A stretch of DNA of 64,000 nt from Paecilomyces variotii (lineage: Eukaryota): the NCBI GenBank assembly GCA_004022145.1, contig RCNU01000008.1; one strand, given 5' to 3'. A model generated the notes under the pieces. The model was not told where the DNA came from. It searched no databases and worked only from the letters and a program-made list of their open reading frames with translations. Of the stretch, positions 43,448-48,723 are shown piece after piece (within the stretch, counting starts at the first letter, position 1; every line of letters begins with the position of its first letter). Position numbers and translations under genes: made by a program.

Positions 43448-43747
43448 CCCGGATTCGCAGATGAAGGGGTGACGCGCGCCCCTCGGAACCCTGTCTAATG
43501 GGCTTGTATTATATGACTGTCTCAGCTACGAAGCGATGCCAATGGCCTTTCTCTCTGAAATTGATACACTAATATGTACATTATATAACACTTTTAGGAC
43601 CTTCATATACGGCTCTTGCCAAAAGGAAGAGCAATGACAACTTCATCTCTACACAATACCTTGCTTCAGAGCTGACATATCTCGTGCCGCAGTCCCATCA
43701 TGGATTCATCAAGATAACTGAACTCACATGCAACCGAAAGGAGAATC

Positions 43748-44618
43748 CTAATCCTTCCCACGGTACAACTCACTCAACGGCCCCTGCCTGGTCCAGATAT
43801 TCATTCCCATCTTCTTCCCACTCGTCACCGGCAATCCCGCATGAAGCGTCGCCCGATCCCCAGTGCCATCTTGTTTCAGATTCTGCCAAAACACCGCGTT
43901 CCTTGGGATCGGACGGAACGTCACGCCTGCATCCCACGGCTCATCACAGTTGATGAATTCACACCATCGTTCGTCCATTGGCGCATCGAGCATGGGGAAA
44001 TTGGTCCCCCCACCCGTCACGTCCTCAACGGTGACATACACAAAAAAGGAAGTGAGCCTGTTCCCACCAACCTCGGCAGTTGTCTGGGATGGAGATTCGA
44101 ACCAGTCCGTATGATGCTGGTAGTTTTCACCAAGTTCATACGCGACGAGCTGAAGAGGTTCGAGATGCGAGCGCGGAATGTCGAATCCTTGGAACGCCAG
44201 GGCGCGGTTCTCAATGCAACGGATAACGTCGTCGCGAGGAGGGCTGGTCGAGCGAGAGTTGCGAGTTGTCGCGTTCATTCTGTTTCCGGCTTCATCGACG
44301 ACTTCGGATTTGGTGAATTGGGATTTCCTATAGATGTATTAGCAAAGCGACTTCAAATATCAAATGCATTTTCCTATATCCTGGGGGCAATACTTACGTT
44401 ATCTCTTGAAGGTGCAGTGTTTCTTCCTCCGTGATAAAATCAGGTATATAGATGACTAGAGGATCCTTGGAGAAGATATGGACACTATAATGGTGATCAG
44501 GACATGTTGTTTCGGATATGCTTTCTTTATTCCCGACGACTATTTGCTTCGCAGCTGCAATGCCAAAGCATAGAGAAGCAATTGTGCCAAGAAGTGGATA
44601 GAACAATGTGCGTCGCAT
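43748..44618 (-). CDS. Prolyl 4-hydroxylase-like 2OG-Fe(II) oxygenase with signal peptide (~266 aa)
   Basis: Exons 44618-44398 and 44327-43748. Signal peptide, 'IFSKDPLVIYIPDFITEEE', 'EPLQLVAYELGENYQHHTDWF' (HxD), 'GNRLTSFFVY', 'GGGTNFP', 'TLHAGLPVTSGKKMGMNIW' (distal His and 2OG-binding Lys). Confidence 0.88.
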
Positions 44619-45189
44619 GGCGCTTTTCTCTTGCTATCTATTCTGTGAACCTGAGTAGAATAAGAATCTTAAAATCCAAACAGAGAGAAGACATCCAGTT
44701 CCTACCCCTCCTGATGCGGAAAATATAATAGTAGTAAAACGGCCCTCCAACTCTCTACCCTGAAACAGAAAAATATCTAAAATAGAATATACCCCAACAC
44801 TTTCTCATCTGTCGCGCCTCCAAGTATAACTAACGGAGGCTGACACAGAAGTGGTTCAGATGATGAAACACCGCTTGTATGGATCTTGTCTGGGGAGCTC
44901 CGCGAGCTCCTGATCTACGCCAATCTACAACGAATCATAAATCAACAATGGTATTGCTCGCTCCTCAAAATGATGCCTCTTTGCATTACGTGGGGTGATG
45001 TTCCGTAGCTTCTCCCGGGGCTCTTTTTTTTTTTTTTTTTGTCTTCTTTTGCTCGATCGTTAAGCTGGCTTGTTTTGTCAACTTGTCTTTTTCAATTGTG
45101 CATATCATACTTCTCAGTTGCGGGACGAGGGAGTGTTGGCAGAAAGCAAATTGATAGACGTCAAAAGAAAAAGAAAAAACCTCCCCAAA

Positions 45190-46775
45190 ATGACGACACA
45201 GACGTCTTTCCGATGTCTATGGCCTTTGTTGTTGTTGGGCTGCGGTCTTTATCAGAGCTCTTTCGCAAGCGGGGAACTTGTCCCGATAGTATCGGAGAAA
45301 GAGTTCAATTCGATTGTCGGGAAGGATAATACGGTACTTGCTACTTGTAAGGATTCACTAAAATCATGACATTTCTATTTATGCCAAGTGAAGCTGATTG
45401 AAGGAAAGCTAACTGTGCTAATTGATAGTTATCTCTGTATGTTCTCATTCAGTCTTGAACATATATTAGGGACTCAGGCTCATAAACCGGTCAATGTACC
45501 TACCTACCTATATAGCCACAAAGGTAGGTACTATTACGCCTCTCTTCTATCCCATGGGATAAATGAAAAGACCACTAGCTAATAATGGAATTTCTCAGCC
45601 CTCCAAGTAACGCTTTATTCCCTGAACTTACGCAGGCTGCATCTACATTAACAGCGCCGCTCATCACTGTCGACTGCACGGCTGCTACAGCTCTATGCAA
45701 GAAATACGATATCAACGCCTATCCCACCATCAGACTCTTCCATGGCTTGGAAGATAATATTCGATATAGGGGCCCAAGAGCGGCAGATGCGTATGTACAT
45801 GACATTACATTGCTCTTTCTCCACTTGTACCCAATATCCTAATCTAGCAGAACCAACAAGTTATTATACGAAATAACTAACAATCCGATTATTATAAAAC
45901 CAGAATAATCTCATTCATGATAAAACAACAACTCCCCCCACTCACAACCCTCGACAACGAAACCATCCAAGTCTTCAAATCCATCGACGATAAAGTCTTC
46001 ATCGCCTATCTCCCACCTCCAACAGATGATGACGAGGAGGTATCTCCCGATGATCTCATCCGAGAAATATACACGTCCGTCGCGAACCAGAATCACGATC
46101 GTTTCGTATTTGGGATCTCGTTCGATCCGGCCCTCGCAGCGAAAGATGGTCTGCCTGTTCCGTCGATTGCGTGCTACAAGACGCGGTCCGAAGGGAATAA
46201 TGAGGCTCTTGCGGGAATCGAGTTCTCACGGAGGAAGGTGGAGGAGTTTGTGCAGGCGATGAGTCGGGACGTTATTGGTGAGATGAATAGGAGGAATATG
46301 CAGGAGTACATGCAGGTGAGCTCTGATCTGGCTTTTCGTGATCGGTTTGGGCGAGAAAACGGTCAGGACTAATGAAGTATATGAAAACAAGCCCTCTAAA
46401 CTCCTCGCCTATATCTTCTATGACACGCCCTCTACTCGCACGCATCTCCGACGCTCTCTTGGTCGCGTGGCCAAGAAACTTCAAGAATACGTGACGTTTG
46501 TCACCATTGATGATAATGAGTATGGTCATATCGCGACAAGTTTGGAGGTGCGGCCAGAGCTGTTACCCGCGCTCGTGGTCCACGACATGATGACGGATCG
46601 AGTATTTGTGTACGACCAAGAGGCAGAGATTTATCCTAAGGCAGTGGGGAAGATGCTACTAGATATTCTACAGGGAAAATCCACACCGGGGGTGCAGCCG
46701 GTGGAGGATCAAAAGGCACATGAAGAGAACAACGATGAGCAGAAGGGGAATGACAATGGACATGATGAATTGTAG
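45190..46775 (+). CDS. ER-retained PDI-like protein (a-b-b' thioredoxin folds, no CxxC, C-terminal HDEL; ~386 aa)
   Basis: Exons 45190-45346, 45429-45436, 45516-45523, 45599-45790, 45904-46315, 46392-46775 (1161 nt, in frame). Signal peptide, VDCT..ALCKKYDINAYPTIRLF, YRGPRAADAIISFMIKQQLP, and ends GHDEL. Confidence 0.8.
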
Positions 46776-47192: not shown

Positions 47193-48723
47193 TCAAGATG
47201 ATACCATCCAGTAAGCCCCACCGATAGTGAAAATAATAACAAGGCCAGTAAGGATACCAGCACCAGCACGATCAGCAACAGTGATCTTGTCTTGATAATC
47301 ATGCAGGGAATCGTCATCTGAGGCGCCGGTGCCTGCAGAGTAGTCACCTTTACTGGTACCGCCGGTCATGTTCGTGACGGTATCTGGAACCTGGTCGATC
47401 AGATTGGATTGGAAAATTTCCATCGCACTCATCTGCTCCCCAACACCGAGACTGCCATCGAATTGTGCTCCCATCGTCCATCGCAAACCACAAGCATTAT
47501 TGGGGCCGCTGCACTGTTGAGCAGCTGCCATGGCTGAAGCCTGTAGCTTTGGTAGCAGTAGGTCGTGTGTGAAAGGCGCTAGCTTGATGGTGGCTGCCAT
47601 CCATCGTGCGAGGTAAGCTTTAAACGATCGTTGATCGACATTGCATTTTCCATTGCTTTCGCACGCTACTTCAGTCATGACGTTGTTCTCGAAGAAGACG
47701 TTTGTACCACGTATGATGCCTTCCAGGCGAGTCTTCCAGGTCTCTGATCCATTTGTCTGGGGTGTCTGTCAGTATAAAGGAGGTAGGAATTGACGAATAA
47801 GGCAGCCTTACAAATTTATACATGGCCGCCGCTCCCATCATGAAGACGCCACTATTGTAGGTCCACTGTATGTGGTTTAAACTCGTACAGTTTTGCGTAT
47901 CATCAGTACCATCGAAGAAAGTGTAGTCAGACGTGCCGAGTCCTATGGCCATAACCCAATCGAATGCTCGTTCCGCCCATTCCGCATATGTCTGATTGCC
48001 AGTGTACACGGCCAACCGAGAAGCTAGGTTGAAGAAGCAGCCGTTTGAGATAGTATTCTTGTAATTGTATCCGTTGTTGAATGAAAATATTTGCCACTTA
48101 AGGCCTCCTCCGCAGGTCGCGTTGTCCCAACGAGGAGCTTGCGTATTGAAGACGGCCTGCGCCAGCGCGAGCCACTGAGGTTGATCCTCCGGAGGATTAG
48201 GAAATCTGGTTTCGGCAGCAGTCATGGCTGCCATACCCCAGAACCCCTGATCATCATTTCCCAAAGTCTTTGACTGATTCGGCGGCATGTAATTTTCTTC
48301 CGGTCCGACCTGCCAAAGCATTGCCTGGGTTGTCACATCCACGTATTGCTTGTCCCCTGTGTAATAGTAGTAGTCGATCAATGCCCCGAACATCGCTCCA
48401 GCTTCCCACCAGTAATATGGATCCGGAAGGTTTCCAGGGACATCACCAGGGTGATCTCCCGTGTAGTATTTCATCATGCCAGCCGCCGCGGTCTTTGCCG
48501 CATTCTTGATCGATTCTAATGCGTAGGCAGTGAGCATCGGATGTCATAGTCATAGTTCGCTTTGCTGACAGACAGCGGAAAACACAAATCTTCAATCACA
48601 CATACCTGGGCTGTTCAGATCCAGATCAATAGCAGCTTGCACCATATGGGCACCCAGAAACACAGCACAGACGAGGGGTTTCCATGACCAAGTCTGGTCG
48701 AAAACATGTGGTAGTAACCTCAT
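47193..48723 (-). CDS. GH76 mannan endo-1,6-alpha-mannosidase/transglycosidase (Dfg5/Dcw1 family)
   Basis: Signal peptide, [12 protein letters not shown], catalytic [39 protein letters not shown], and a hydrophobic GPI-type C-terminus. Confidence 0.92.

Follow-up and report, generated by a model that had tools for sequence, protein, structure and literature searches.

A short prolyl 4-hydroxylase and a redox-dead PDI paralogue are encoded head to head in filamentous ascomycetes and are predicted to bind each other

In a 64,000-nucleotide stretch of Paecilomyces variotii DNA (assembly GCA_004022145.1, contig RCNU01000008.1; hereafter the window), a gene for a short prolyl 4-hydroxylase (P4H) stands head to head with a gene for a protein disulfide isomerase (PDI)-like protein that has lost its catalytic CxxC motif. 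We consider it probable that the two encode the subunits of a heterodimeric prolyl hydroxylase of filamentous ascomycetes, retained in the endoplasmic reticulum (ER) and equipped with a dedicated pseudo-PDI subunit. The catalytic subunit would be the 266-aa short-type oxygenase, kin to algal, plant, and viral P4Hs, and its 386-aa partner would be a fungal PDI paralogue left after loss of the a' domain and the nucleophilic cysteine. The dead a domain of the partner is predicted to clamp the N-C-D-E-P-W-D loop of the hydroxylase in the client-peptide groove of the thioredoxin fold, a groove built from the former active-site, cis-Pro, and RYRGPR loops. HDEL on the PDI-like protein would keep the complex in the ER, with the hydroxylase held there piggy-back and presumably at 1:1 stoichiometry, and the complex would hydroxylate prolines of secretory proteins; the non-catalytic subunit would supply retention, a solubilizing role, and probably stability. 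We hold more tentatively, as a proposal just short of probable, a fuller version: that this is an obligate two-subunit P4H whose pseudo-PDI arose by PDI duplication and loss of a' and the active cysteines, that it holds a lineage-specific P4H loop in the former active-site groove, and that the P4H/PDI-type partnership arose independently of its animal counterpart, with another interface.

Head-to-head neighbors are frequent in fungal genomes, so a divergent arrangement in a single window is no proof of a connection; its conservation in other fungi is. We scanned metagenome contigs with a P4H alignment, obtaining 98 pattern matches, 82 of them confirmed, at 80 loci that form 56 clusters at ≥95% nucleotide identity, and searched these loci with 50 CxxC-less members of the PDI-like family. 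Clusters with at least 46% identity to P0001, the P. variotii database protein matching the window's P4H, were assigned to an orthologous clade and those with 33–45% to a distant clade; a cluster was informative if it had at least 850 nt upstream of the P4H gene. Divergent adjacency in other fungi, which an earlier note on this DNA had named as a check of the pairing, held throughout: the PDI-like gene lies upstream and on the opposite strand in all 31 informative orthologous-clade clusters (46/46 loci), against none of the eight distant-clade clusters (0/10 loci) with enough flank, where it was found nowhere in the contig DNA. The gap between the nearest aligned ends of the pair is 361–1942 nt (median 687). 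In a further 16 orthologous-clade clusters the upstream sequence falls short of 850 nt, which makes them uninformative; two show the start of the gene and 14 nothing. The distant clade consists of loci L067 and L069–L078.

The neighbor genes resemble the one in the window in what they have lost and kept. Twenty-eight of the 31 show no CxxC in any aligned piece, and the CxxC strings in the remaining three lie at other positions or in non-coding read-through, none at the active-site position. An HDEL-like end is present in 25/31, and several of the others reach the contig end. In named genomes, the P4H and PDI-like proteins carry consecutive accessions on the same contig in three fungal classes, as in Lophiotrema nucula (KAF2117642/43), Xylariaceae sp. 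FL0594 (KAI0397150/51), Apiospora arundinis (KAK8026253/54, five assemblies), and P. variotii (DTO027B5_7152/7153, many strains). As a control for turnover, we compared 24 kb of the window with the loci by tblastx: bins in the P4H gene match 54–80 loci and those in the PDI-like gene 32–43, against at most five for every other bin, mostly L001–L005. Because of the metagenome linkage, this control, and the consecutive accessions, we conclude that the two genes have stayed linked in four classes even as the genes around them changed.

The hydroxylase assignment is firm at the level of sequence matches to solved structures and of catalytic residues. The window's P4H is identical to P0001 at 257/266 residues (97% over exon 2 alone), and its sole Pfam match is PF13640. 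A profile of 18 homologues, picked from the best 120 of 464 found, matched nine sequences in the PDB, all prolyl 4-hydroxylases. The best was Chlamydomonas Cr-P4H-1 (2jig_A, E 2.6e-24, profile positions 42–251), followed by the catalytic domain of human collagen prolyl 4-hydroxylase (C-P4H)-II (7zsc_A, 2.5e-22), the Bacillus anthracis enzyme (~1e-21), P4H-TM (2e-14), and the PBCV-1 enzyme (2e-11). H146, D148, H236, and K246 are invariant in the 18-sequence alignment and line up with the equivalent residues of Cr-P4H, and C39, C111, C196, and C201 are likewise invariant; the pattern H.D...H.{9}K occurs in 86/86 homologues of at least 240 aa among the best 120 of the 464 matches. By inspection, the hydrophobic N-terminus is a signal peptide or signal anchor. 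The C-terminus, ...YRGKD, carries no ER-retrieval signal, and a [KHR][DE]EL end is found in 0/86 of the same homologues, so that the earlier claim of a P4H with an intact HxD...H...K motif and no retention signal is confirmed in coordinates and residues alike. Retention signals are complementary across the two families, HDEL-type on the PDI-like proteins and none on the listed P4Hs. By alignment and profile, the 266 residues comprise a signal region and a catalytic domain, with no dimerization or peptide-substrate-binding domain, and the protein would be expected to catalyze peptidyl-proline 4-hydroxylation.

The PDI-like gene required a revised model. RNA contigs from run X1 contain four spliced joints (Table 1). 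Taken as the single 95-nt piece present in the X1 contig (45429–45523), the segment between the first two joints shifts the frame into a stop at codon 66. In the annotation of P0121, the matching P. variotii database protein, this piece is split into two 8-nt micro-exons around a 79-nt GTATGT..TATAG intron. The resulting model has 386 open codons, introns that are all GT..AG, and 374/386 alignment columns identical to P0121 (99% identity in the last exon), and it reads V-L-A-T-F-I-S-P-Q-S-P-P-S-N-A-L, placing F-I-S-P-Q-S-P-P-S at the PDI CGHC position, where the Knufia homologue has F-V-S-P-W-T-P-P-S. This reading also lines up without gaps with what we take to be the PDI active-site stretch, ...FFAPWCGHCKAL... 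We accept the micro-exon model because of this homology to P0121 and Knufia; the 3' splice of micro-exon 2 is in no RNA contig of runs X1–X4. The two micro-exons thus flank their intron exactly at the former PDI active site. An earlier model of the 5' end, with a single 246-nt intron and donor GTACTT, was dropped after the RNA joints and the micro-exon homology, and F-I-S-V-C-S-H-S, read from the retained 79-nt intron as a possible relic active site, was judged coincidental, since the micro-exon model aligns gap-free to the PDI active-site region and to Knufia.

Among P. variotii strains the PDI-like protein is annotated at anything between 259 and 386 aa, a variation that probably arises where gene finders miss the micro-exons. 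Together with the truncating RNA isoform and the commonness of divergent neighbors, this spread could be taken to mean that the adjacency is chance or a relic and that the PDI-like gene is decaying in this strain. With the spliced frame open over all 386 codons to its HDEL end, and with 31/31 lineages keeping the pair amid changing surroundings, we consider that reading very improbable.

The protein encoded by this model matches PF00085 (Thioredoxin) over P0121 residues 33–128 and PF13848 (Thioredoxin_6) over residues 170–343. The family profile aligns with residues 9–330 of a solved 507-aa PDI, spanning a-b-b' (E 1e-94). On the strength of these matches, we regard it as a PDI paralogue that ends after b', without a'. 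The window protein has no CxxC: S-P-P-S replaces C-G-H-C, and the structural pair C84/C91 is kept. Its N-terminus is hydrophobic and, judged by inspection, a signal peptide. The a-b-b' layout, HDEL end, and missing CxxC described in the earlier note therefore stand, and the gene model is amended to six exons, two of them micro-exons.

An exhaustive protein search for PDI-like homologues returned 2420 matches at E≤1e-3 and 62 at E≤1e-30, overturning the narrow distribution suggested by word-based searches (4/109 and 5/7999 candidates). Among the 153 relatives examined (the best 150 plus earlier matches), 66 have a CxxC and 58 are CxxC-less proteins of 300–420 aa, 50 of which have an HDEL-like end. 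Thirty-three members picked as full-length were aligned (mean column identity 29%); none has a CxxC, all have lost the first active-site Cys, and a few keep only the second (T-G-P-C). Members occur in Eurotiomycetes (Cladophialophora, Knufia, Exophiala, Rasamsonia, Paecilomyces), Dothideomycetes (Neocucurbitaria, Lophiostoma, Lophiotrema), Leotiomycetes (Acephala), and Sordariomycetes (Niveomyces, Cladorrhinum, Podospora, Xylariaceae, Apiospora). By homology, the family is therefore widespread in filamentous ascomycetes, represented in named genomes of four classes. The suggestion that "this fungus" may encode a dedicated partner is supported as to a dedicated, non-catalytic PDI-like neighbor and fails as to being specific to this fungus.

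We folded residues 25–266 of P0001 together with residues 27–362 of P0121; no family alignments built here were used. Complex prediction of the pair, also among the checks in the earlier note, came out in favor of binding: three runs gave ipSAE values of 0.74, 0.74, and 0.74, against 0.00 for the best of three controls. In calibration, the pass mark was reached by 51/78 solved complexes and 2/108 mismatched pairs. The predicted complex has 54–59 contacts, with at least 98% contact agreement between runs and a partner pLDDT of 86–87. The lowest-error contacts join P4H residues 200–206 (N-C-D-E-P-W-D) to PDI-like residues 96–103 (the cis-Pro loop, A-Y-P-T-I-R) and 113–118 (R-Y-R-G-P-R). The dead active-site loop (55, 57–59) and C84 also contribute to the predicted interface, the share of b' is small (residues 249–251 only), and on the P4H side residues 145 and 235 adjoin iron ligands.

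The residues predicted to be in contact are more conserved than the rest of each protein. On the PDI-like side, the mean top-residue frequency is 0.62 at the interface versus 0.42 elsewhere, a value reached by 1/20000 random residue sets; on the P4H side it is 0.79 versus 0.69, reached by 716/20000. The distant, partner-less P4H clade also departs at interface positions, having no Trp at 205 and one Gly fewer in the T-G-G-G turn. Its sequence there is W-C-x-x-x-x-C-(R/Q/H)-(D/N) followed by D-E-G or E-T-G-G, as opposed to W-C-E-F-x-x-C-D-E-P-W in the partnered clade.

Conserved divergent adjacency could also reflect a shared pathway with no stable complex, in which the redox-inactive PDI-like protein acts as chaperone to the proline-rich substrates or serves as a substrate itself, and the genes are linked only through a bidirectional promoter. 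The shared spacers are indeed enriched in a CCCCTG-type motif, with ACCCCTG in 18/32 versus a maximum of 8–11 in 30 mononucleotide shuffles, and the dead loop is Ser/Pro-rich in Paecilomyces (S-P-Q-S-P-P-S) and Knufia (S-P-W-T-P-P-S). However, that composition is not family-wide, the Podospora loop being L-P-K-E-E-N-S. Nor does a shared pathway sit easily with a complex prediction that passes where its controls give 0.00, or with a predicted interface to which the b' pocket, where PDI usually binds its clients, adds so little. We judge this explanation improbable. The spacer motif itself carries no weight for the window, because its exact form is missing from the window's own spacer, which holds a one-base-shorter look-alike, TACCCTGAAACA, near 44753.

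The subunit model has a precedent in animals, where C-P4H is an alpha2-beta2 enzyme whose beta subunit is PDI and the redox chemistry of that partner is dispensable. In the human structure (PDB 7ZSC), PDI binds the catalytic domain: an N-terminal extension reaches the a' CGHC through Cys311 and inserts Ile324 into the b' pocket, and the C-terminal tail contacts the a-domain CGHC through Cys529 and makes main-chain bonds to the cis-Pro loop (PMC9676403). The fungal pair shares with it a P4H catalytic domain without a retention signal and a PDI-family partner that bears one, and in both, on the fungal side by prediction, part of the hydroxylase sits on the client-binding face of a thioredoxin-type domain, its cis-Pro loop included. 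Comparison with the human alpha/PDI interface, as proposed earlier, thus supports a thioredoxin-fold client groove that holds a hydroxylase segment and does not support the same interface. The fungal hydroxylase lacks the dimerization domain, the peptide-substrate-binding domain, and any sign of the N-terminal extension; its partner is a dedicated paralogue with no a' and no CxxC, whereas the animal partner is the general, redox-active a-b-b'-a' PDI. The fungal contact loop, 186–208, falls in a break between the two stretches that align to 7zsc_A, and is presumably an insertion missing from the human alpha subunit. We propose a heterodimer; a tetramer is not expected.

Other comparisons place the two proteins among known relatives. 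The hydroxylase resembles the short P4Hs of Chlamydomonas (Cr-P4H-1, 2JIG/3GZE), PBCV-1 (5C5T), and B. anthracis (5IAX) in size class, Fe/2-oxoglutarate residues, and the loop in which a Cys pair lies, and differs from these monomeric enzymes in belonging to a clade with a conserved neighboring partner gene and, relative to Cr-P4H, in three extra loop positions at the D-E-P-W motif. ERp27 and ERp29 are redox-inactive or atypical PDI-family members, and the PDI-like protein resembles them and ERp44 as an ER thioredoxin-fold protein without a full CxxC that would act by binding rather than catalysis. Their domain make-up and clients are different, and the family profile is closest to fungal-type PDI a-b-b' (1e-94, versus 3.5e-27 for ERp44, among solved structures). 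PDI is a permanent enzyme subunit in MTP-PDI (PMC9676403) and in yeast Mnl1-Pdi1 (PMC12170172), and the predicted fungal complex would likewise use a PDI-family protein as a structural subunit of a non-redox enzyme; those complexes, as described there, use the general active PDI, unlike the redox-dead paralogue genetically linked to its client in fungi.

Several observations weigh against the subunit model. The P4Hs of algae, plants, and viruses to which this one is related are active as monomers, so a hydroxylase of this kind needs no partner in principle. Pairing was counted in one direction, the loci having been gathered from the P4H side. The proteins folded were the P. variotii database proteins, which are 97% identical to those of the window (257/266 and 374/386), and 7/44 blindly drawn neighboring genes also pass the mark; the score may moreover be partly memory, PDI-family client complexes having been solved (7ZSC; ERp57-tapasin). 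The interface motifs of the PDI-like protein are also kept in catalytic PDIs (Y-K-G-Q-R in the solved PDI), and interface conservation may be partly a fold constraint. At the transcript level, the sole assembled PDI-like RNA isoform (X1) still contains the 79-nt intron, with a stop at codon 66, and splicing of the P4H intron appears in no RNA contig. Finally, the signal-peptide-bearing, 275-aa FsP4H1 of Fusarium sacchari is reported to be secreted and to act as an effector within plant cells (PMC13581073), and permanent ER retention would be doubtful if FsP4H1 belongs to the partnered clade.

It is this report that keeps the main rival alive, namely that the PDI-like protein is a private chaperone or escort, binding transiently in the ER to fold the hydroxylase or hold it inactive, and that the enzyme then leaves, whether by secretion or for the Golgi or cell wall, acting there or, in pathogens, in the host. 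FsP4H1 resembles the window's hydroxylase in its P4H domain, signal peptide, and HxD...H motif, and its homologues are said to be widespread in plant-pathogenic fungi; it differs in its reported role, that of a secreted effector binding a transcription factor of the plant, with no partner protein mentioned in the available part of the report (PMC13581073). Its signal peptide proved functional in a yeast secretion-trap assay (PMC13581073), which tests the signal peptide alone, and FsP4H1 bears on the point only if it lies in the partnered clade. An escort would also fit a hydroxylase family with a secretory N-terminus and no retention signal, and conserved pairing and predicted binding suit it as well as they suit a subunit. 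A predicted interface as large (54–59 contacts) and confident as this one, with invariant residues, is better suited to a stable complex, and we regard the escort as unlikely.

To our knowledge, dependence of P4Hs on a PDI subunit is considered peculiar to animals, the short plant, algal, and viral enzymes working alone. The earlier note knew of no such system in fungi, and likewise no fungal P4H described as having a PDI-type partner turned up in the full-text literature, subscription journals lying outside that coverage. If the subunit model is correct, a redox-dead PDI paralogue beside a short P4H in four ascomycete classes would solve the same problem a second time, apparently with a structure different from the animal one, and the pair would offer a simple two-gene model of a PDI fold turning into a structural subunit. 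It also provides a first clue to the function of a widespread family whose annotations go no further than "thioredoxin-like" or "protein disulfide-isomerase." A preprint survey (bioRxiv 10.1101/2021.10.08.463732) cites endogenous collagen prolyl 4-hydroxylase activity in fungi and puts the number of fungal collagen-domain proteins at 508; such proteins are possible substrates, and hydroxyproline in fungal secreted or wall proteins, collagen-like ones for example, might then be widespread and overlooked. The pair would be relevant to cell-wall biology, to reports of P4H "effectors" in plant pathogens, and to the production of hydroxylated collagen in fungal hosts.

Table 1. Positions of the two genes, their exons, and landmark codons in the window
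Feature	Coordinates	Strand	Remarks
P4H gene, whole	43748–44618	minus	2 exons, 266 aa; ATG 44618, stop 43748–43750
P4H exon 1	44398–44618	minus	hydrophobic N-terminus and first conserved strand region
P4H intron, 70 nt	44328–44397	minus	GTAAGT...CTATAG; GT..AG; excision gives family-colinear LQEIT-KSQFTKSEV
P4H exon 2	43748–44327	minus	residues 74–266 and stop; double-stranded beta-helix catalytic core; PF13640, E 7e-9
H146-T147-D148 codons	44105–44113	minus	first two Fe(II) ligands; invariant in 18-sequence alignment; aligned to Chlamydomonas P4H H-Y-D
H236 to K246 codons	43811–43843	minus	third Fe ligand to 2-oxoglutarate-binding Lys; invariant in 18-sequence alignment
N200-C-D-E-P-W-D206 loop codons	43931–43951	minus	center of predicted interface; lowest-error contacts; C201, D202, W205 invariant
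ATG-to-ATG intergenic region, 571 bp	44619–45189		presumed shared promoter; contains 18-base T run
Uninterrupted 18-T run	45024–45041		mid-spacer
PDI-like gene, whole	45190–46775	plus	6 exons, 386 aa, ends HDEL
PDI-like exon 1	45190–45346	plus	hydrophobic N-terminus, a-domain start (...NTVLAT); joint 45346>45429 in X1 RNA contig
PDI-like micro-exon 2, 8 nt	45429–45436	plus	completes F, then I, S; GT..AG both sides; matches P0121, Knufia F-V-S
PDI-like micro-exon 3, 8 nt	45516–45523	plus	P, Q, start of S; joint 45523>45599 in X1 contig
PDI-like exon 4	45599–45790	plus	dead active site, C84/C91 pair, cis-Pro and RYRGPR loops; PF00085; joint 45790>45904
PDI-like exon 5	45904–46315	plus	a-domain end, b domain, b' start; PF13848
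PDI-like exon 6	46392–46775	plus	b' domain, acidic tail, HDEL (46761–46772), stop; PF13848; joint 46315>46392

The spacer between the two start codons, put at about 570 bp in the earlier note, measures 571 bp. Contigs from run X1 end at 44929 and resume at 45058, flanking the T run, and contigs of this kind cannot reveal transcript starts. One X1 contig of 7550 nt spans the whole P4H gene, its intron, and 311 nt past the ATG without a joint (43600–44929), and may represent pre-mRNA, an antisense or read-through transcript, or DNA carry-over. The contigs of runs X3 and X4 are unspliced, stem at least in part from a strain 95–99% alike, and are uninformative on splicing; X2 gave none. Where the CCCCTG-type motif is present in other spacers (L010, L014, L018, L022, L026, L027, L046, L050, and L053–L059, among others), it often takes the form ACCCCTGA and often occurs in both orientations 30–40 bp apart.

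One organism accounts for loci L001–L005; its P4H has 57% identity to P0001, its gene order follows that of the window over an extended stretch to either side of the pair, and its spacer is much longer, with ~1.9 kb separating the aligned ends. Downstream of the PDI-like gene in the window, at 47193–48537 on the minus strand, lies a GH76 (Dfg5/Dcw1-type alpha-1,6-mannanase) gene in two open reading frame pieces (PF03663, E 6.5e-115 and 2.3e-32), which among the loci stands beside the pair only in L002–L005.

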